From the IMG/VR virus record IMGVR_UViG_3300013383_000035: a stretch of 54,608 nucleotides of DNA, one strand, 5' to 3'. The position numbers and the translations under genes were made by a program. This document shows, piece after piece, positions 3,016-23,784 of this stretch. The notes under the pieces were generated by a model. It was not told the DNA's origin. It did not search any database and saw only the letters and a program-made list of their open reading frames with translations. The stretch's first letter is position 1, and every line of letters begins with the position of its first letter. This stretch comes from a virus.

Positions 3016-3107
3016 ATTAGTTACCTTTTTCTTTTGAATAATACCATATTACTATACTTACATATAATAAAGTAATTAAAGTACCTATTGTAAATCCTAT
3101 AAAAATG

Positions 3108-3335
3108 TCATAGTACATTAAATTTATCTGAGTCAACTTTTTTGACTTCATTAATTTCAACTTTTGAAATATTCTCATCAGAACGTGCAAGAAGCCTAAT
3201 TAAAGGGATAAGTTTTTTTTTACTCTCTAAATCCTTCGCTTCATGTTCATCGTCAATTAGCCAATATTGAAAACCCACGAAAAGCCCACGAAAATCTTCA
3301 AGTTCAGCAGTAACTATGTATTGTTTCATTGTCAT
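3108..3335 (-). CDS. Hypothetical protein (AT-rich cassette, first gene of the leftward operon)
   Basis: 75-aa ORF. Confidence 0.5.
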   Translation of the reverse strand: MTMKQYIVTAELEDFRGLFVGFQYWLIDDEHEAKDLESKKKLIPLIRLLARSDENISKVEINEVKKVDSDKFNVL

Positions 3336-3714
3336 TTAATTAAAATATTATGTACTTCATAATCCCTACTTATTATCCGTGGAGTAGTCATAAACCCCGG
3401 CTTACAACCCTCCCCCCTCATTAAAAAACCAAAAAACCAAACCGCAAATCAAGCCCAAAACCCAATCCGCTTCAACAAAATTACAAGCATCTATCCAATT
3501 TCTCAAACAATTTCCAATTCTTATTTATATTTATAATATTATAATATTATTATATACTATACTAACTATGTATATAGTTAGGATAGTTTCTCGCCTTTCC
3601 TTAAAAATTTTTTTTTAAGGCGAGGACTTTCCCCGAAAAATTCTACACACCTACATATTCATACCATAAGTGATTATAAACTACTTGGTTAGATGTGTGT
3701 AGTTCGGTGTGTAG

Positions 3715-3960
3715 ATTACCCCAAATTACCCCCTTTTATGTACATAAACCTCCCTTTTCACACCAAATTTACCCGATTTTTTGCTCCAAAATCACCCCCC
3801 TTACCACTAAACCCTCCCCTCCCTACAACCCACTCCCAATCCCCTCCCATCTTATTATCGCTTACCCGATTTATCCCCACAAACCAAAACATCCCTCCCC
3901 TTCATTACCTTTCTTATCTTATCTCTCCCACTCCCCCATTTACCCCCTTGCGTAATTATT
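3715..3960. repeat. Strongly G-depleted, C-rich tract on the plus strand, so G-run rich on the minus strand. It has repeated TTACCCGATTT and TTATCCCCA words
   Basis: About 7 G in about 245 nt by eye. The minus strand at 3812-3848 reads GGGAGGGGATTGGGAGTGGGTTGTAGGGAGGGGAGGG. Confidence 0.8.
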
Positions 3961-4385
3961 ACATATAATTATCCCCATTTAACCAATTTTATGAAGCTAA
4001 AACCGCCTTAACTGATTGTAGGTCAACTGGTTACGCCAGAATTTTTGAAAAAAAATTTTGATGGGACGCACCCCAACCCCAAAAAAATCGTTTTTTTTAG
4101 CCCCCCGCACCCCTACTTTTTTTATAAATATCTGAAAATCAATCTATTTGCCTGTGTGTGGCGTCCGCAACCTCCGTCCGAATTTTGCGTGTAAGTGCCT
4201 GAAAATCAGGCAGTTAGCTATTTTAGGGTGTTAAGTGCTTGATTATCAATGTGTTGCGCATTCTCTCACAATCTTCATTACGGCTTATCCGTTTGACTAA
4301 TAGCGTTTTATGTGTTTGTGGTTTAGAAGCCTCTAAATATTTTGGAGGTTGAGTAAATTGAGTAAATCAGGAGTGTGCTGTATTA

Positions 4386-4427: not shown

Positions 4428-4659
4428 TTATATAAATTCAGGAGGTGGATATTTCGGCTTGGTTTATTTTGCGTAAGATACACGCAAAAGTTATCCTATC
4501 AGAGTGCTGTTTGTTTATTAGTTAAATATTGTGAAATTGACCGAAAATAATTGCGTAAACATTTGGAGGTTAGAGAAAAAGTTGCGTACTTTGTATGTAG
4601 AAAAAGGAACGGAATTGACCGTTTTAATCAGAACAAAAACTAACTAAATCAAAAATCAA

Positions 4660-4983
4660 ATGAGAAAGATCGAAAAGGAAATGTATGCAGCCTTTTGTGG
4701 TGGCTATAACTGGCACAAATCAAACACACGCGTGAAAGTTTTATCCTATAGCGACGGAACGAAATCCGTCTATGTGTTTCTTTTCGGCAACCTAATCGCC
4801 GAAAAGATAATAAACAACGCGAAAGGCATATACTCAAAAAGGTTTTTTACTAGCGGCTTTGACACGGCTACAACGTGCAGCCGTCTCAAAGCGCTCGGCG
4901 CAAGATGTAGCCGCAAAGGTGGTGTAATCCACTTTGTCGACACAGGCGAGGCTGTACAGAGCTATCACACGCCGCTTGTCTAA
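4660..4983 (+). CDS. Hypothetical protein
   Basis: 107-aa ORF, first gene of the rightward block. Confidence 0.55.
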   Translation: MRKIEKEMYAAFCGGYNWHKSNTRVKVLSYSDGTKSVYVFLFGNLIAEKIINNAKGIYSKRFFTSGFDTATTCSRLKALGARCSRKGGVIHFVDTGEAVQSYHTPLV

Positions 4984-5105
4984 TCTAAGCAAAAACAGCG
5001 CCGCGGCGCTATCTATCACAGACAGCGCCGCGGCTAAAACTAAATCTAAAATCTAACCGCAAAGGTACGATAATTCGCCCTTTGCACAAAATAATAAATA
5101 ATTTT

Positions 5106-5300
5106 ATGCAGATATTTACAGTATATAGTATCGGCTGCAACGCCGAATTATTTGCCACTACGTACGGCGAATATATCACAGACGTTAACCCCGGCTACTT
5201 TGGAGGAGTCGAGTTTACACTCCGCGCGCCAACCGAGATCATACAAGAAATAGCACACCTAACCGATGAGTGCATCGAGATAATAACTATAAAAAACTAA
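5106..5300 (+). CDS. Hypothetical protein
   Basis: Track ORF 5082-5300. The first ATG is at 5106. Confidence 0.45.
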   Translation: MQIFTVYSIGCNAELFATTYGEYITDVNPGYFGGVEFTLRAPTEIIQEIAHLTDECIEIITIKN

Positions 5301-5304
5301 AAGT

Positions 5305-5517
5305 ATGGATAAAATTAAAATCAAAATGTGGTCAGTACAGACTACTGGCGGCCAAATCATTATTGATCAGGAGCCGCAAGAAACGTTTGTCGTGTTTAAT
5401 TCCGCCGAACGCGCGGAATTAGCCCAAAAGCGCGGGTTTACGTGGGATAGCGACGCGAATTACTACCTAACTAAAACGGCCGCTAGAAAGGCTATTGCGT
5501 GGGCGCTTAGCAACTAA
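5305..5517 (+). CDS. Hypothetical protein
   Basis: 70-aa ORF starting 4 nt after the previous stop. Confidence 0.5.
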   Translation: MDKIKIKMWSVQTTGGQIIIDQEPQETFVVFNSAERAELAQKRGFTWDSDANYYLTKTAARKAIAWALSN

Positions 5518-5723
5518 TAACAAAGTCGGCTCGGCGACTCAAAATAGGCATTAGGCCGGGCGCGTGGGCGGATAAAGATAAATCCGCCCGGTTGTAATAA
5601 CTTAATAAATCCTACTATGATATTAAATTGCCTCCTATCAAGCGCTACAATTGCGCTTTTGGGCGTACCTTTCGCCGCCCGAAACAAAGCGCCGTTTTTT
5701 GGCATGCGAAAAATAATCCCCAC

Positions 5724-5760
5724 GCCCGTCAGTGTTTAACAAATTTTAACACTGACGGGC
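5724..5760. repeat. Perfect 13-bp inverted repeat (gcccgtcagtgtt ... aacactgacgggc), a hairpin or operator
   Basis: Read directly. It lies just upstream of a TAnnTTTG box. Confidence 0.7.
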
Positions 5761-5784
5761 AACAAACCGAAGCTCATACGGCTG

Positions 5785-5792
5785 TATCTTTG
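5785..5792 (+). promoter_or_regulatory. Candidate Bacteroidota -7 promoter box TATCTTTG (TAnnTTTG)
   Basis: Matches the established Bacteroides sigma-ABfr -7 consensus, about 40 nt upstream of ATG 5834. Confidence 0.4.
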
Positions 5793-5833
5793 TGGGCACA
5801 AACATAAACATAATCACGAACATAATCACGAAA

Positions 5834-6972: not shown

Positions 6973-7722
6973 ATGGCGGAATATATATATCTACGCGTAT
7001 CAACGCGTAATCAAGACTACGCACAGCAACTTGAGGACATCAAGCGCTACGGCGTTAACCCCAACGAAGTAAATGGCATCGTGGAGGAGCACGAAAGCGG
7101 TGGCACATCCTACGAGGACAGGAAACTTCGCGGTTTGCTTAGCAAATGTAAGCCGGGCGACACAATCTATGTAGGCGACACAAGCCGAATAGGCCGTTCC
7201 CAACTGGATATGATACGGCTTATGGTCAACGCCAAAGAGGCGGGCATCGGCATTGTTGCCTGTAAAAACGGCCTACGGCTTGACGCCGACGACATCGGCA
7301 GCCGTATAACTTTATCTATCCTTGCAATACTGGATGAGGATGAACGCATGCGCATCAAGCACCGTGCGAAAAACACGGTAGAGGCGCACCGCGCCGAAAT
7401 TGCGGCAAAAGGCTACCGCATTACAAAGGCGGGCAACATACAAAATCATATTGGCAACGCGAAAGGCGTTGATATGACGCCCGCGATAAAACAAAGTATT
7501 GTGGCAAAGCAAGAGAGTGCACAACGGTGGCGAGAGGAGTCTTCGGCATACCGCTGGACGCTGGCGAAAAAGGCCGAAGGCAATACAGCCGCTCAGGCCT
7601 ATGCCGAATTAGAGCGACTTATGGACATTGCGCCCGAAACCTTTTGCAAACGCTCGGGAGGCCGAATAAGTCGGTCAACTTTTTACGACTGGTGGCGCGA
7701 AAAAAACGTCTTGAAAGTATGA
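6973..7722 (+). CDS. Small serine recombinase (resolvase/invertase family)
   Basis: N-terminal YIYLRVSTRNQDYAQQ (catalytic Ser motif), then GDTSRIGRS. 249 aa. Confidence 0.85.
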   Translation: MAEYIYLRVSTRNQDYAQQLEDIKRYGVNPNEVNGIVEEHESGGTSYEDRKLRGLLSKCKPGDTIYVGDTSRIGRSQLDMIRLMVNAKEAGIGIVACKNGLRLDADDIGSRITLSILAILDEDERMRIKHRAKNTVEAHRAEIAAKGYRITKAGNIQNHIGNAKGVDMTPAIKQSIVAKQESAQRWREESSAYRWTLAKKAEGNTAAQAYAELERLMDIAPETFCKRSGGRISRSTFYDWWREKNVLKV

Positions 7723-7860: not shown

Positions 7861-9030
7861 CTATCGTTTACCATACAGCACCCAATCAAGCACCCTGCGA
7901 TTAGCATTATCCACTATTTCGTTATCATAGTCGATATAAACATCTGTTATGGCTGCGCCAAATGAATGACCAAGCGCCTGACTTATAACATCCTTTGGAA
8001 TGCCTATGCTGTACGCTATTGTCGCCCAAGAGTGCCGCGCCCAATATAACGTTAAATCGTCTCGTCCGGTATACTTTCTAAGAGCAACCTTTATTGCGTG
8101 GCACATAACATTGCGTGTATACCATATATCCGCGTACGTCAACAATTGACCATGCCTGTCCGATTTGTAGCGGTTTATGATTTCAAGCGCTTCCGGCTCA
8201 ACCTTGATACTATACTGCTTTCGCGTTTTGGCACGCTCATATGCAATCCGCCCGTCCTCCGTTATGCCCGTCAGACCAAGCATATCAACGCCGTTTATTC
8301 CAATAAGCATAAACGACAGCTTGAATGCGTCTAATGCGGTGCGGGCGCGGGCGCTTTTTGGCGATAGCGCCAATATGGCACGTAAAGACTCAACAGACAG
8401 TGAGCGTTTGCGTGTAGGCTTATTACATTTAATTCGCGGTAAGCGGATAAACGGGTCGCGATCTATAAGCTCATTCCGAATAGCTTCATTTACAACCGCA
8501 TGAATGCACTGCATATAATTGGCGATTGTCCCCGAGCTGTAATTCTGATTATGCAGCCAATTCAGATACCGAGACAACAGTGCATAATCAATCTCCTGTA
8601 TAAGCATATGTTCGACCTTCGGTTCATAGCGGATTAGAGTATTAAGGCTAACCCTATAACACGCTTGTGTAGCCTTTCGCAGTCGGCAGCCCATAAAATC
8701 ACGATACAGCAGCACAAACCGATACTCTTTTTCTATCTGTCGTCCAAACAGCTTTTCGGCGACACGTTCTTTGATCTCGGCAACATCCATAAACCTGCCG
8801 CCAGCCTGATAAATTTCCATTTTAAGCGCATCTAACTGCTTTACCCAATAAGCCAAGACGTTGGAGAGACGTTCAAGCCGTTTGGGCGGATTAGGCGACA
8901 ACGCAAGGTCTAAATCAAGTGGAGCGAGATACATATCCGTTGCGAGTTCGGCCTTTCGGCGATTGTTGATAATGCGGATGCGGACGTTATTACAACGCCG
9001 TTCATCACACACGAGTTTCATTGTTATCAT
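7861..9030 (-). CDS. int: Tyrosine integrase (phage integrase family)
   Basis: 389 aa with a SAM-like N-terminal domain. The C-terminus has ARHSWAT ... GHSFGAAITDVYIDY (R..HxxR..Y catalytic pattern). Confidence 0.9.
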   Translation of the reverse strand: MITMKLVCDERRCNNVRIRIINNRRKAELATDMYLAPLDLDLALSPNPPKRLERLSNVLAYWVKQLDALKMEIYQAGGRFMDVAEIKERVAEKLFGRQIEKEYRFVLLYRDFMGCRLRKATQACYRVSLNTLIRYEPKVEHMLIQEIDYALLSRYLNWLHNQNYSSGTIANYMQCIHAVVNEAIRNELIDRDPFIRLPRIKCNKPTRKRSLSVESLRAILALSPKSARARTALDAFKLSFMLIGINGVDMLGLTGITEDGRIAYERAKTRKQYSIKVEPEALEIINRYKSDRHGQLLTYADIWYTRNVMCHAIKVALRKYTGRDDLTLYWARHSWATIAYSIGIPKDVISQALGHSFGAAITDVYIDYDNEIVDNANRRVLDWVLYGKR

Positions 9031-10576: not shown

Positions 10577-10630
10577 TGTTAAATATAGTTAAATATCTGC
10601 ATAAAATTTGGAAACTTGTGATTAGTGTTG

Positions 10631-18717: not shown

Positions 18718-18739
18718 CATAAAATTAGCATAAAAAAAA

Positions 18740-20346: not shown

Positions 20347-20616
20347 ATGGTATTTGTCGGGGGAAATGTAGGTTCACACCCTGCTGCGGCTTCCAAATCA
20401 AACGCGAAACTATATATAGCACGCAATATTAGCCGCGGCACAACGCTGGTAGCCGTAATTGTGGCAAACACGCCCGAAGAAGCCCAACGACTTATCGTAC
20501 AAAGACGTCCCGACCAAAGTTGGGTGATAATACCAGACTGGATGCTTCTAAACCCAATGAAACAAATAAACGTTAACGTTAACACAAACAAACCAAGAGT
20601 TATTGCGGTAATATGA
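20347..20616 (+). CDS. Hypothetical protein
   Basis: Track ORF 20311-20616, first ATG at 20347. ATGA overlap with the methyltransferase start. Confidence 0.4.
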   Translation: MVFVGGNVGSHPAAASKSNAKLYIARNISRGTTLVAVIVANTPEEAQRLIVQRRPDQSWVIIPDWMLLNPMKQINVNVNTNKPRVIAVI

Positions 20617-21350
20617 AAACAATTAGAGTGTTTGAGGCTTTCGCGGGCTATGGCTCACAGGCGCTCGCGCTTGAACGCCTCGAAGCGGCATACCCCGACA
20701 AGGTACATTTTGAGTATGTGGGCATAAGCGAAATTGGCCCTAACGCCATAAAGGCTTATCTCGCCTTACACGGCTATGATACTCCAAATTTCGGGGATAT
20801 TTCTAAAATAAATTGGAATGACGTTCCCGATTTCGACTTGTTTACTTACTCATTTCCTTGTCAGGATATATCATCGTCAGGGTTGCAACGCGGCTTTGAT
20901 GCTGATAGCGGCACGCGCTCGTCTCTACTTTGGGAGTGCGAGCATGCAATCAAAATAAAACGTCCTAAGTATCTGCTAATGGAAAACGTCAAGGCGCTCA
21001 CGCAGAGAAAATTTTTGCCGTTGTTCAATAAGTGGCTTGGGGTGCTCGCTTCCTATGGTTATGCGAATTATTGGCAAATACTCAACGCCGCCGACTTCGG
21101 TGTTCCGCAAAACCGCGAGCGTGTGTTTGTCGTCAGTGTGCACGGCGAACATAAGCCGTTTGCATTTCCAAGCGGTAAACCACTCGAAACAACTGTCGAA
21201 GATGTTCTCGAAGACGCAAATGATGTCCCCCAAAGCTACTATTTCCCCAAAGAAAGGTCTGATGAGGTTTTAGACAATATCATTGCTCAACCGCGCACTC
21301 GAAAGATGCTTGAAGAACTTTATCACGAGTTATGGCGGTCAAACAAGTAG
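20613..21350 (+). CDS. C5-cytosine DNA methyltransferase, N-terminal catalytic half (motifs I-VIII only)
   Basis: FAGYGS (motif I), FPCQDIS (motif IV PCQ), ENV (motif VI), QNRERVF (motif VIII). It stops before any TRD or motifs IX-X. Confidence 0.9.
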   Translation: MKTIRVFEAFAGYGSQALALERLEAAYPDKVHFEYVGISEIGPNAIKAYLALHGYDTPNFGDISKINWNDVPDFDLFTYSFPCQDISSSGLQRGFDADSGTRSSLLWECEHAIKIKRPKYLLMENVKALTQRKFLPLFNKWLGVLASYGYANYWQILNAADFGVPQNRERVFVVSVHGEHKPFAFPSGKPLETTVEDVLEDANDVPQSYYFPKERSDEVLDNIIAQPRTRKMLEELYHELWRSNK

Positions 21351-21364
21351 GTCTTAATCTGACA

Positions 21365-21372
21365 GGGGGGGG
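21365..21372 (+). repeat. G8 homopolymer tract 1
   Basis: Read directly. It encodes GGG in the frame starting at ATG 21332, and adding one G joins that frame to the frame-1 ORF ending at 21612. Confidence 0.95.
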
Positions 21373-21570
21373 CATTGCGCAGTGCATAACAACCTTAGTC
21401 GCGAAGCAAGGCGAACAGAATGTCTTACAGCACCGCGGCAAGTATCGCCCCTGTTTAGGAGTGCTTGTGATATGGATAGGCAAATAGCAGTTGGGCTGAC
21501 GAGTGTCGGCCTTGTCAGAACGCTGCGAGCATCGCAATATAACACGCCACTCACCCAAGCCAAACGCAAC

Positions 21571-21578
21571 GGGGGGGG
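21571..21578 (+). repeat. G8 homopolymer tract 2
   Basis: Read directly, inside the frame-1 fragment (..KRNGGGVIAE..). Confidence 0.95.
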
Positions 21579-21648
21579 CGTTATTGCAGAGATAATATAT
21601 TATGTGTGTTAAGACTAAAAATAAACAGATAGCCGTATCTACAAAACA

Positions 21649-21656
21649 GGGGGGGG
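21649..21656 (+). repeat. G8 homopolymer tract 3
   Basis: Read directly, inside ORF 21602-21796. Each tract length gives a different C-terminus. Confidence 0.95.
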
Positions 21657-21860
21657 TATTCTCCTGCTGTGTTGCTCAAATGCACCACGCCGGATATACC
21701 AATTTTATCGGCAGAAATAATCCTTACGGCTGTATGACATCAATACTCGTGATAAAAAAAGATGGAAACAAAGAGCATAGCAATAAACCTCAATAACCGA
21801 GGTTGCGCCTTTGCCGTAACAACACGCAGCGGCGATGCTTCCTTTCGGGACTCTGTTAGT

Positions 21861-21869
21861 GGGGGGGGG
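21861..21869 (+). repeat. G9 homopolymer tract 4
   Basis: Read directly. Adding one G joins the frame-0 fragment METKSIAINL...SGGG to the 75-codon frame-2 ORF ending at 22085. Confidence 0.95.
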
Positions 21870-22133
21870 TATTATCCCAAGCTAAGTGTGCTAATAATCA
21901 AAAGTGGAAGAACACAAGGCAAATAGGCCACGCAAGGCGGATAAATATCCGTGTTAATCCGCAGCGGTATCGTCCATATCTGACGTATGGCCTTGTTCAT
22001 ACTGCCACACGTGCGTGGGGACAATATACTGCCCCATACTGCCCCTTTGGTTTATGGTTAATAATAAATTTATCCTCACGCCGATAAGGACGGAGGAAGG
22101 TCGCCGCTTACGGCGCATTTACGGTGATACGAT

Positions 22134-22141
22134 GGGGGGGG
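22134..22141 (+). repeat. G8 homopolymer tract 5, which interrupts a recognisable TRD
   Basis: Upstream in frame 1 is ..ILTPIRTEEGRRLRRIYGDTMGG. Downstream in frame 0 is GGGFRYRHLVPRTDGCSNTLTTVLKDNLI. A 9-G tract would fuse them. Confidence 0.95.
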
Positions 22142-22160
22142 CTTCCGCTACCGACACCTC

Positions 22161-22574
22161 GTGCCGCGCACGGACGGATGCAGCAACACGCTTACAACAG
22201 TACTTAAAGACAATCTAATTATGGGTTTAGAACAACAATTGACAACGCTTGAATATCACGAGCATCCAACCGTCGAGCAGCTTGTGGTGTTTTTCAAACC
22301 AATAGCGTATATCCGCAAGGCCACACCGCGAGAGTATTTCCGGCTTATGGGCTTGACGGAAACCGATATTGATAAAATAGACGCATATCCTTGTGCGTCT
22401 GTGCAGGAGTTCGCTAATGCGGATAAGGCTACACAGCGGCAAGGCATAGCCAAATCCAACAAATACAAACTTGCAGGCAATAGCATCGTTGTTGACGTGC
22501 TTTACGCGATATTCGAAAATATGTTTATCAAAGACGGCGGTGATACAGCACGTCAAATGACGCTTGACTTATGA
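22161..22574 (+). CDS. C5-cytosine DNA methyltransferase, C-terminal part (end of the TRD plus motifs IX and X). The frame is open from 22128, with no ATG upstream in frame
   Basis: DGCSNTLTTVLKDNLI (TRD), ATPREYFRLMGL (motif IX), AGNSIVVDVL (motif X). Same frame (mod 3) as 20613-21350. Confidence 0.85.
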   Translation: MPRTDGCSNTLTTVLKDNLIMGLEQQLTTLEYHEHPTVEQLVVFFKPIAYIRKATPREYFRLMGLTETDIDKIDAYPCASVQEFANADKATQRQGIAKSNKYKLAGNSIVVDVLYAIFENMFIKDGGDTARQMTLDL

Positions 22575-22825
22575 AAAAACAAATAGAAGTTGACCGCGAC
22601 AAACTTATAGACATACTTGTTGCCGTGTGTCCGCAACGCGGCCTTATCGGAGACGAGACGGACATGTGCAAAAGCGTTTACTTGCGGCAATGCCGTGTTT
22701 ACCTCGGCGACCGCTATGAAAAATGCCCTCCCGATTGTCCGCACCTCGAAGAAGCGGCGGCGGACGCACGATGCAAACGCGGCTACTGCCCGAGAATCAA
22801 AAAACTACTTAAAGAGCTGAAATAA
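22571..22825 (+). CDS. Cys-rich hypothetical protein
   Basis: 84-aa ORF with ATGA-type coupling on both sides. Confidence 0.5.
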   Translation: MKKQIEVDRDKLIDILVAVCPQRGLIGDETDMCKSVYLRQCRVYLGDRYEKCPPDCPHLEEAAADARCKRGYCPRIKKLLKELK

Positions 22826-23784
22826 TGAAAATAGGATTAATTGACGTTGACGGCCAACATCGTAGGCGCAGCGCTAAACCATATCCCAACCTCGCCCTCG
22901 CCAAGATTGCCGCATACCATAAGAATCTCGGTGATGAGGTAGAATGGTATAACCCGCTATGGGGGGGGTATGACAGAGTCTATGCGGCCAAAATTTTCAA
23001 TTTTAGCCCCGACTACGATATACCAATAAACGCTAAGGAGGTAGTTAAAGGCGGCACGGGATATGATATACACTCGCGGTTGCCCGAAGAAATTGACAGG
23101 CTACAACCGGACTACTCAATATATCCCCATGTCGGCAAAAAAGAGTCTTATGGGTTTATCACGCGAGGATGCCCCAACAAATGTCCGTGGTGTGTTGTCC
23201 CCGAAAAAGAGGGCAACATTAAACCTTATATGGATATTGACGAAATTACGCTGCACGGCAGGCGTCCGAACGTAACACTTATGGACAACAATATTCTTGC
23301 TTGCCCTTACGGAATTGAGCAACTCGAAAAGGTTGCGGATAAAGGCTATTGCATTGACCTAAATCAAGGCAATTCGGCAAGACTTGTAACACCTCGTATT
23401 GCTCAAATATTTGCATCTATACGCTGGTATCGGGGAAATATTCGTTTTGCAGCGGACACACTTCGTCAAATTGAAGAAGTTGAAAACGCGATGCAGCTTA
23501 TTGACGGCTATTCCAAACATCCCAGGCACTATGTTGTTTACACGATGATACACGGCGATATGGAAAGCTGCTATAAACGATTGGTTCACTTTCGTAGTAA
23601 TCCGAGAGTTGCAATTTGCGCCCAGCCTTTTCGTAATCCGCACAAAGAAAACGCAATACCGCAATGGCAAAGAGATATGGCTCGGTGGGCAAATCGACAC
23701 GAGTTTTTCAAGGCAATCGACTTTTGGGATTTCGTACCGCGAAAGGGCTTCAAGTGTTCAGTATATAAAAATCTAATCAATTGA
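22825..23784 (+). CDS. Radical SAM enzyme (B12-binding-like N-terminal domain)
   Basis: GCPNKCPWC is the CX3CX2C radical-SAM cluster motif. 319 aa. Confidence 0.75.
   Translation: MKIGLIDVDGQHRRRSAKPYPNLALAKIAAYHKNLGDEVEWYNPLWGGYDRVYAAKIFNFSPDYDIPINAKEVVKGGTGYDIHSRLPEEIDRLQPDYSIYPHVGKKESYGFITRGCPNKCPWCVVPEKEGNIKPYMDIDEITLHGRRPNVTLMDNNILACPYGIEQLEKVADKGYCIDLNQGNSARLVTPRIAQIFASIRWYRGNIRFAADTLRQIEEVENAMQLIDGYSKHPRHYVVYTMIHGDMESCYKRLVHFRSNPRVAICAQPFRNPHKENAIPQWQRDMARWANRHEFFKAIDFWDFVPRKGFKCSVYKNLIN
22961..22968 (+). repeat. G8 homopolymer tract 6, in frame within the radical SAM gene
   Basis: Encodes W-G-G in ..NPLWGGYDRV... Any change of one G would truncate the protein after about 47 aa. Confidence 0.95.

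Follow-up and report, generated by a model that had tools for sequence, protein, structure and literature searches.

A putatively multispecific, phase-variable C5 methyltransferase locus with separate target-recognition cistrons in a temperate phage of gut Bacteroidales

Introduction

The viral genome IMGVR_UViG_3300013383_000035 (54,608 nucleotides, referred to as a whole as the window) encodes a C5 DNA methyltransferase (MTase) whose catalytic half and closing motifs lie apart, with a series of short open reading frames (ORFs) and long runs of G between them. The locus raises the question of whether this arrangement is a broken gene or a working switch and, if it is a switch, what is being switched. 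The original prediction, made from the letters of the DNA, offered two answers: a contingency locus, in which slipped-strand changes turn methyltransferase specificity or activity and a neighboring radical S-adenosylmethionine (radical-SAM) enzyme on and off, or a decaying gene with several target recognition domains (TRDs), of the type of the Bacillus phages SPR and phi3T. Here, we compare the locus with near-identical assemblies, more distant relatives and a family of related loci. The locus is probably a multispecific C5 methyltransferase with one cistron per TRD, in which each specificity would phase-vary independently and the TRDs would act in trans.

Results

Six G Tracts in a Divided Methyltransferase

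Exactly six runs of at least seven G are present in the 54.6-kb window, all on one strand and inside 1.61 kb. The next longest G run is 6 nucleotides (nt), and the window has no C run longer than 6, and thus none of seven or more. Under a model of independent and identically distributed bases, 0.85 G/C runs of at least eight are expected window-wide, and the probability of six or more within 1.61 kb is approximately 3e-13. The G8 and G9 runs that the original prediction had named were found at every one of its positions, with no further G/C run of seven or more. The features of the locus are as follows, where ON stands for a tract length that keeps the frame of the cistron:

20613-21350, + strand: alpha, catalytic half of a C5 DNA methyltransferase, motifs I-VIII, 245 amino acids (aa); PF00145 at 1.8e-51, profile positions 2-203 of 324
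21332-21487, + strand: u1, TRD mini-cistron of 51 aa with tract 1; ATG overlaps the alpha stop by 19 nt; under purifying selection
21365-21372, + strand: tract 1, G8, encoding Gly-Gly-Gly of u1; 7, 8, 9 or 10 G elsewhere
21472-21632, + strand: u2, TRD-like mini-cistron with tract 2; the conserved 9-G frame gives 53 aa, stop at 21630-21632
21571-21578, + strand: tract 2, G8, in u2; 8, 9 or 10 G among assemblies
21602-21796, + strand: u3, TRD-like mini-cistron of 64 aa with tract 3; orthologs 61-87% identical (aa)
21649-21656, + strand: tract 3, G8, in u3; 7 or 8 G among assemblies
21762-21926, + strand: u4, TRD mini-cistron of 54 aa with tract 4; orthologs 62-81% identical
21861-21869, + strand: tract 4, G9, a three-way switch in u4; 8, 9 or 10 G among assemblies
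21872-22087, + strand: u4b, TRD segment without a start codon, translated only with tract 4 out of the u4 phase
22054-22220, + strand: u5, fifth TRD, at the N-terminus of the beta ORF; cut short in the window by the 8 G of tract 5
22134-22141, + strand: tract 5, G8 (OFF), in u5; 7, 8, 9, 10 or 12 G among assemblies
22221-22574, + strand: gamma, motif IX-X module of 117 aa, the C-terminal part of beta when tract 5 is ON; PF00145 profile positions 273-322
22961-22968, + strand: tract 6, G8 (in frame, ON), codons 46-48 of the radical-SAM gene; 8-9 G among assemblies

All six tracts lie inside ORFs, at Gly codons, where a change in length alters the reading frame. The catalytic half proposed at 20613-21350 is confirmed by its PF00145 match, and the motifs FPCQD, ENV and QNRER can be read in the translation of alpha, whose closest solved structures in the PDB are M.MpeI, M.HhaI and M.HaeIII. 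Alpha ends at a conserved stop after '...LYHELWRSNK'. Its closest homologs in a collection of 5.8 billion proteins are mostly also 237-265 aa long, many of them ending at the same '...LYHE.W...' site. The ATG at 21332 does overlap this stop, as predicted.

The C-terminal part carrying motifs IX and X was likewise identified correctly: the stretch 22161-22574 matches PF00145 profile positions 273-322, with 19.6-20.3 bits for gamma or this C-terminal part alone, slightly below the 22-bit cut-off. Gene callers report the 117-aa gamma ORF in every assembly. With tract 5 at 9 or 12 G, beta runs from the ATG at 22054 to 22574, and a tract-free, continuous beta ORF is present in L021 (L-numbers label the assemblies and loci compared). 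Joined into virtual single chains, alpha plus beta and alpha plus u4 plus gamma each give one PF00145 alignment over positions 2-322 of 324, at 197.9 and 197 bits, respectively. In an AlphaFold2 (AF2) model of the latter chain, gamma is packed on alpha with a predicted local distance difference test (pLDDT) score of 87-96. A search of PDB sequences with beta gave no meaningful match.

The Spacer Is a Chain of TRD-Sized Cistrons

Between alpha and gamma lies a chain of short, ATG-started cistrons, each overlapping the end of the preceding one and each crossing its own G tract. The original prediction had taken these fragments for degenerate TRD starts. Instead, u1-u4 are complete cistrons of TRD size (46-64 aa) in differing frames, and all units share the layout 'K-Q-I-A/G-x-x-L ... 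G-x-x-x-x-T-T/L ... GGG ... V-L-I-I-K'. The mini-ORF boundaries, from 'KQIAxNL...' to '...VLIIK', coincide with the TRD module boundaries in intact homologs, for instance in the uninterrupted homolog P0057. There are six TRD-sized units between motifs VIII and IX, the place of the tandem TRDs of multispecific enzymes, but they are separate ATG cistrons in different frames and not contiguous in one polypeptide as in SPR and phi3T.

The similarity of these units to TRDs is graded. The clearest case is u5, which is 46-52% identical to a TRD within many uninterrupted enzymes ('VLTPKRTEYGK...EPRTDGISNTITTVQKDNLL') and is continuous and tract-free in L021. A hidden Markov model (HMM) of u4 matches mini-ORFs in L023, L085, L089, L099, L123 and L064 as well as long MTase ORFs, in their variable regions (L076, L078, L080, L083, L111 and L131). 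The HMM of u4b matches the variable regions of uninterrupted multi-TRD enzymes (L108-L110, L065, L058, L052, L077, L102, L029 and L070), and in L017 the homolog of u4b is the TRD that runs on into motifs IX-X. The orthologs of u1 in L017, L019 and L021 have 67-80% aa identity, and its HMM cross-matches u4-type units, which marks it as a paralog of u4. The expected TRD similarity is therefore found for u5, u4, u4b and, as a paralog of u4, for u1; it is weak for u3 and a matter of pattern for u2.

Specifically, u3 aligns weakly with the second TRD of P0057 (E = 0.009), at the matching position, and an exhaustive phmmer search of u3 against 1.84 billion representatives returned four spurious repeat proteins only. 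For u2, no TRD homolog was detectable outside its orthologs, and relaxed HMM searches with u2 and u3 against the uninterrupted enzymes gave nothing significant. In the window, with 8 G at tract 2, u2 is 46 aa long and ends at 21612. The orthologs in L017, L019 and L021 fit the 9-G reading ('...GGYSYDNALCV...'), so that the functional u2 frame is that with 9 G and u2 is OFF in the window; it is ON in seven of 11 assemblies.

The segments between tracts 2 and 3, 3 and 4, and 4 and 5 contain stops in all three frames, and hence no combination of tract lengths yields a single ORF. A single long ORF restorable by tract changes was considered as a candidate and rejected on this ground. Together with the conserved alpha stop, these stops separate the locus from the single-polypeptide state that is usual for C5 MTases.

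Within these limits, the tracts determine which products can be made. At 3n + 2 G, tract 1 leaves u1 ON; one more G gives a fusion of the u1 N-terminal part to u2 and two more a 19-aa stub. Tract 4 yields complete u4, a fusion of the u4 N-terminal part to u4b, or a truncated product. The prediction that one extra G at either tract joins adjacent fragments describes actual genomes: it gives a 100-aa ORF at tract 1 in L013 and a 108-aa ORF at tract 4 in L011 (the tract 4 fusion ORFs of L010 and L011 are 107-108 aa), and L013 has a 40-aa stub at tract 4. Similarly, 9 G at tract 5 was predicted to restore one ORF, and with 9 or 12 G u5 is indeed fused to motifs IX-X in a beta ORF of 173-174 aa. 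This state occurs in nature, with 9 G in L010, L014 and L187 and with 12 G in L184.

Tract Lengths Differ Among Near-Identical Genomes

We compared 12 assemblies from IMG/VR, ENA and Logan, which come from differing samples and pipelines and are at least 98.7% identical to the window (L185 is identical). Across 3.8 kb, indel columns are confined to the six tracts, which show 2-5 length alleles each and lengths of 7-12 G. Pairs of assemblies separated by one single-nucleotide polymorphism (SNP) differ at four or five tracts (L011/L012, L011/L014), and L010 and L016, with 2 SNPs between them, differ at all six. Pairs of assemblies differ on average by 0.548 per tract and by 0.00194 per nucleotide site; change per tract is thus approximately 280 times faster than per nucleotide site. 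As controls, the A/T runs T9 at 3213, A8 at 4048 and T8 at 4091 are invariant, and T9 at 3608 (3608-3616) and A8 at 18732 (18732-18739) are bi-allelic between lineages.

The 11 non-identical assemblies represent eight ON/OFF combinations (phasotypes). Beta is ON in four of the 11 and tract 5 is OFF in the other seven; among those seven, 19 of 28 u1-u4 readings are in frame. The contingency-locus reading is supported by these comparisons: as in other contingency loci based on simple sequence repeats (SSRs), the tracts shift the frame of coding sequences, are polymorphic far above background, and are conserved in position and enriched.

Some contigs end near tracts. L018 ends approximately 4 nt before the tract 3 position of L017 and L056 approximately 44 nt after its C9, and L150 is a further case. 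Such ends are expected of an assembly graph with several tract lengths in one sample, and this evidence is anecdotal.

The Mini-Cistrons Are Under Purifying Selection

The second of the two initial answers, a decaying multi-TRD gene, was set against more distant relatives. We used L017, L019 and L021, whose alpha proteins are 71-84% identical to that of the window at approximately 75% nucleotide identity and against which synonymous sites are nearly saturated (pS, the proportion of synonymous differences, 0.53-0.64). The pooled ratio of non-synonymous to synonymous substitution rates (dN/dS) of u1-u4 is 0.17-0.19 (bootstrap 0.09-0.30). In protein-blind, nucleotide-level alignments, the constraint is confined to the annotated frame, where the ratio of the corresponding proportions (pN/pS) is 0.23-0.31, versus 0.7-2.4 off-frame. 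The C-terminal part of u3 has a dN/dS of 0.10-0.17 against L017 and L021, and its dS is saturated against L019. All four start codons of u1-u4 are conserved in the three relatives. Low dN/dS, frame-specific constraint and retained start codons do not fit a decaying gene.

The start Met of gamma (window 22221) is kept in all four genomes (MGLEQQL, MELEQQL, MSVENQL and MGLQQQL). Purifying selection on u1-u4 persists in L019, which lacks u5 and any TRD joined to motifs IX-X, and also in L017, with u4b as the sole unit joined to them.

The comparison of tracts in related genomes, which had been suggested as a check, shows that their positions are kept: L017 and L019 hold tracts at the same sites in spite of the nucleotide divergence. 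Several tracts are replaced in the relatives by ordinary Gly codons, with an unchanged cistron layout.

As a separate observation, L019 (at approximately 5700, ERZ28645860 scaffold_49) has an in-frame stop within the IX-X module, '...AKSKK*ALAGNS...', with u1-u4 otherwise kept.

A Family of Split Loci With and Without Tracts

A survey of viral contigs and species genomes yielded 137 non-redundant loci, of which 46 are split and 91 uninterrupted, the latter encoding proteins of 350-726 aa with several TRDs per chain. G/C runs of at least seven occur in the variable region of 31 of the 46 split loci and of five of the 91 uninterrupted ones (Fisher p = 1.7e-14), an association that is partly circular for single-tract loci, where the split class partly rests on tract frameshifts, but not for multi-cistron loci, with their stops in every frame. 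Within the 46 split loci, tract density is 1.16 per kb in the variable region versus 0.06 per kb in their own flanks, a 19-fold difference, and A/T runs are unenriched. Counting ATG-started mini-ORFs in the split loci gives 128, with a median length of 55 aa; overlaps occur at 119 of the 176 junctions, most commonly of the ATGA type. Recorded hosts are mostly Muribaculaceae, Prevotellaceae and other Bacteroidales.

Three kinds of loci illustrate how tracts and cistrons relate. First, L123, in the complete genome of cultured Segatella copri HDE04, consists of alpha, two TRD mini-cistrons and beta and is free of homopolymers; in its relatives L082 and L091, the same cistrons contain G7-G8 tracts. 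Second, L117 (the chromosome of Muribaculaceae sp. Strain X, tract at 4587), L157 (Muribaculaceae Isolate-002), L025 and L038 have a single tract (G9/G10, C12 or G7), at which a change of one nucleotide restores one multi-TRD ORF of 413-465 aa; all four are OFF as sequenced, and this is classical whole-enzyme ON/OFF switching. Third, L084 (IMGVR_UViG_3300031994_000095) has seven G tracts (9, 10, 7, 8, 12, 9 and 9) in 1.1 kb at 4700-5830, which interrupt TRDs found unbroken in the 723-aa enzyme of L048. In some related loci, C runs encode Pro. The existence of tract-free, tract-bearing and single-tract loci indicates that the multi-cistron layout is a stable design, to which tracts have been added as a second layer. 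The view of the locus as a split gene rejoined by slippage is thereby replaced by that of a stable multi-cistronic design, which exists tract-free in S. copri HDE04.

Two further observations concern tracts elsewhere in these genomes. L111 has a G8 tract within the alpha gene itself. The flanks of the 46 split loci (L021-L157) are approximately four times denser in G/C runs of at least seven than those of uninterrupted loci (0.062 vs. 0.014 per kb), so that other genes of split-locus phages may be tract-switched as well.

Neighboring Genes and Phage Genome

Two genes follow the methyltransferase cistrons:

22571-22825, + strand: Cys-rich ORF of 84 aa; start overlaps the gamma stop (ATGA)
22825-23784, + strand: predicted radical-SAM domain protein of 319 aa, with tract 6 at codons 46-48; phrog_9298 at 1.6e-92

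After the IX-X module, L017, L019 and L021 all retain the Cys-rich ORF (58-66% aa identity, dN/dS 0.23-0.41). Neither Pfam nor PHROG gave a match for it, and it could either add another component to the methyltransferase operon or regulate that operon. In the radical-SAM protein, the cysteine motif CPNKCPWC (CX3CX2C) can be read from the sequence, and PF04055 scores 18.2 bits, under its cut-off of 29.5. Tract 6 encodes W-G-G in a loop that is unconserved among homologs. The case for the proposed on/off switching of this gene is weak: the tract is present in each of the 12 assemblies and shifted out of frame in L010 alone (9 G, protein cut at 49 aa), none of the radical-SAM homologs examined has a tract at this site, and no functional link between the enzyme and the methyltransferase was found beyond their adjacency. 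Tract 6 is probably another, rarely switched contingency site.

The 54.6-kb genome (G + C content 46.8%) is that of a temperate siphovirus-type phage, with genes for an integrase, a serine invertase, an exonuclease/RecT pair, a sliding clamp and a D5-type primase, and with structural genes for tape measure protein, major head protein, large terminase and portal. The end of the window joins its start in a related assembly, which indicates a circular or circularly permuted genome. A search of GenBank phages found no close relative, the matches being distant ones to the methyltransferase and radical-SAM genes only, including Bacteroides LoVEphage. The phage is a temperate phage of gut Bacteroidales.

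Several other features of the genome were recorded. The serine DNA invertase gene (6973-7722, + strand) adjoins the tyrosine integrase gene (7861-9030, - strand), and a perfect 19-nt inverted repeat, AATTTTATGCAGATATTTA, at 5100-5118 and 10590-10608 flanks both, its copies 5.5 kb apart. This region could be an invertible segment, and as such a second switch of a different type, or the repeat could be due to chance. The A/T-rich stretch 3100-4200, possibly a regulatory or origin region, has few ORFs of at least 90 aa and many A/T homopolymers. A 9-bp indel lies at 350-358. Finally, the contig IMGVR_UViG_3300013426_000045 is interrupted within the alpha gene, and its end sequences (first 77 nt of L001/L003, last 109 nt of L002) do not match the window; these ends are probably contig-end assembly artefacts.

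Discussion

The tracts, their hypervariability, the selection on the mini-cistrons, the homology of u4, u4b and u5 to TRDs and the association of tracts with split loci are directly supported by the comparisons above. From these we propose the following mechanism. The locus would be an operon of translationally overlapping cistrons, in which alpha is followed by u1-u4, with u4b as an alternative C-terminal extension of u4, and then by gamma, made both alone and as the u5-gamma fusion (beta). Five cistrons carry their G8-G9 tract at a glycine loop, and slipped-strand changes would switch each of them, independently of the others, among in-frame and truncated products, with fusion to the following TRD as a third outcome at tracts 1 and 4. 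The TRD mini-proteins would assemble non-covalently with alpha and gamma, and each may confer a distinct target sequence. A frameshift in a single-chain enzyme would remove motifs IX-X and abolish all activity, and one cistron per TRD therefore lets each specificity switch alone. The phage population would thus contain many methylation phasotypes, a form of bet-hedging against varied host restriction-modification and methylation-dependent restriction. For a phage-borne orphan MTase, such an anti-restriction role is more likely, we infer, than a role as a phasevarion. In its most specific form, the proposal is that free-standing TRDs of approximately 50 aa plug into a scaffold of alpha and motifs IX-X, that their own tracts give at least 32 phasotypes, and that such systems are widespread in (pro)phages of Muribaculaceae and Prevotellaceae; this we put forward tentatively, as a possibility that falls a little short of an even chance.

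Assembly in trans is plausible because C5 MTases of two polypeptides exist in nature. In M.AquI of Agmenellum quadruplicatum, the large subunit contains motifs I-VIII and the small subunit the distal variable region and motifs IX-X; in M.EcoHK31I, motif IX comes from a small beta polypeptide that accompanies alpha; and complementation between fragments has been seen for M.BspRI, M.BsuRI, M.HhaI and M.SssI (PMC3404938). Alpha and beta of the window, with 9 G at tract 5, have exactly the division of M.AquI, the enzyme that the overlapping ATG had originally called to mind, and M.EcoHK31I resembles the proposed system as a C5 MTase that relies on a small polypeptide acting in trans. The beta polypeptide of M.EcoHK31I has 61 aa and is encoded in an overlapping frame. 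Further support for assembly in trans comes from L019 and L017, since selection on u1-u4 persists there with no TRD, or only u4b, joined to motifs IX-X.

Several points weigh against this reading. We know of no C5 MTase in which the TRD is a free polypeptide of 50 aa. In the AF2 model the inserted TRD has a pLDDT below 50, in a region where the multiple sequence alignment has no coverage, which leaves the model neutral on a TRD in trans. The recognition of u2 by pattern and the weak homology of u3 have been described, as has the partial circularity of the split class. Although u1-u4 are in frame in 31 of 44 cases against an expected one third (p = 5e-7), this test treats related assemblies as independent, and heterogeneity within a population and reversibility are deduced from differences between assemblies. 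The seven of 11 genomes with tract 5 OFF would have no active enzyme unless gamma is translated from its own Met. Finally, the stop in the IX-X module of L019 may reflect lineage decay, or else a sequencing error.

The main rival, which we regard as unlikely while taking it seriously, is a two-subunit enzyme only, in which alpha and beta are functional and tract 5 is the sole switch, with u1-u4 as competitors or regulators or active as fusions only. Alpha/beta is a known natural design (PMC3404938), beta is continuous and tract-free in L021, TRD5 has the clearest TRD homology, and a free-standing TRD subunit has not been described. On this account it is hard to see why u1-u4 remain under purifying selection in L019, without u5, and in L017, with only u4b joined, or why they are in frame in 19 of the 28 cases with tract 5 OFF. 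Moreover, u4 and u4b are homologous to TRDs in working position in uninterrupted enzymes, and the start Met of the IX-X module is kept in all four genomes.

Diversity could also arise at the level of RNA or the ribosome, through polymerase slippage or ribosomal frameshifting on the G runs, which would make DNA phase variation secondary. Runs of 8-10 identical bases can in general cause transcriptional slippage, and the overlapping frames allow fusions of the u1 N-terminal part to u2 and of the u4 N-terminal part to u4b. We consider this improbable, as the DNA tract lengths themselves differ between near-identical genomes, the all-frame stops between tracts 2-3, 3-4 and 4-5 block long read-through, and relatives exchange several tracts for plain Gly codons with the same layout.

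A decaying multi-TRD pseudogene of the SPR/phi3T type, with the G runs as mutational scars, is very improbable. It would account for spacer substitutions at 4-10 times the level of the flanks among near-identical assemblies, for the nonsense codon in the IX-X module of L019 and for the lack of clear homologs of u2 and u3; it is contradicted by a dN/dS of 0.17-0.19 at saturated synonymous sites and frame-specific constraint, by conserved start codons and overlapping junctions, by a layout found in 46 loci including cultured isolates, and by an in-frame bias of 70%.

The G runs might instead act as DNA, as G-quadruplexes (G4) or as recombination hot spots for the exchange of TRD cassettes, with an incidental coding effect. 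Six runs lie on one strand within 1.6 kb and TRD content varies between related phages, but the tracts are always in ORFs at Gly codons, the strand is not fixed in view of the Pro-encoding C runs of related loci, the tracts are 70-820 nt apart, much too far for canonical intramolecular G4 loops, and no recombinant junctions were found at tracts among the 12 assemblies; there is very little to expect from this account. The least probable explanation, homopolymer sequencing or assembly error over an ordinary uninterrupted gene, can appeal to the error-proneness of G homopolymers on some platforms and to contigs ending at or near a tract (L018, L056), but fails on the absence of any tract-length combination giving one ORF, on a 7-12 range too wide for consensus at up to approximately 500x coverage (L187), on the stability of A/T runs of equal length, and on the tract-free S. 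copri genome with the same cistrons.

Phase-variable MTases, multispecific phage MTases and split C5 MTases are already known, as are polyG contingency sites in phage genes. Work of the Trautner laboratory reportedly showed that the Bacillus phages SPR, phi3T, rho11s and H2 encode orphan C5 MTases with tandem TRDs of 40-60 aa between motifs VIII and IX, each with one target. The uninterrupted relatives of the window enzyme are like these in having several TRDs per chain; the TRDs of SPR and phi3T are part of one polypeptide and always expressed, whereas those of the window are separate cistrons with switches of their own. Unlike the window locus, M.AquI consists of two parts with one specificity and lacks both TRD cistrons in between and homopolymer switches, and the window has four or five extra TRD cistrons between alpha and beta. 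The small polypeptide of M.EcoHK31I is motif IX and not a TRD, and this enzyme has one specificity and no phase variation.

In type III mod phasevarions and in the polyG/C MTases of Helicobacter, Campylobacter and Neisseria, a homopolymer in coding sequence shifts the frame and so switches methylation. Such SSR-driven MTases are cellular and usually have one whole-enzyme tract, and a change of specificity needs allelic TRD exchange; in the window, by comparison, several tracts would switch individual specificities, and in a phage. Hypermutable G7-G11 tracts that create subpopulations have been described in phage ORFs for the receptor-binding proteins of Fletchervirus (10.1101/2025.10.21.683753; PMC12823448), and a polyG tract was noted in the methylase gene of the Bordetella phage BPP-1, where it was not studied further (10.1101/2025.10.21.683753). 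The Fletchervirus tracts affect host recognition, and neither case is an array of TRD cistrons. Our literature searches found no description of an array of separately translated TRDs with their own tracts, nor of its spread in (pro)phages of gut Bacteroidales.

If true, a trans-acting TRD would be a truly new element and the locus a new architecture for C5 methyltransferases, which would offer a natural plug-in system for programmable specificity. The idea is directly testable, since single-tract versions are available in cultured Muribaculaceae and a tract-free version in cultured Segatella copri. It would also bear on the interpretation of gut viromes and prophage methylomes, as the routine annotation for such genes is 'truncated' or 'frameshifted'. 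Orphan methyltransferases are a main means by which phages escape restriction, and methylation-dependent restriction punishes the wrong marks; a single phage genome that gives rise to many combinations of specificities would be a new kind of bet-hedging in counter-defence.

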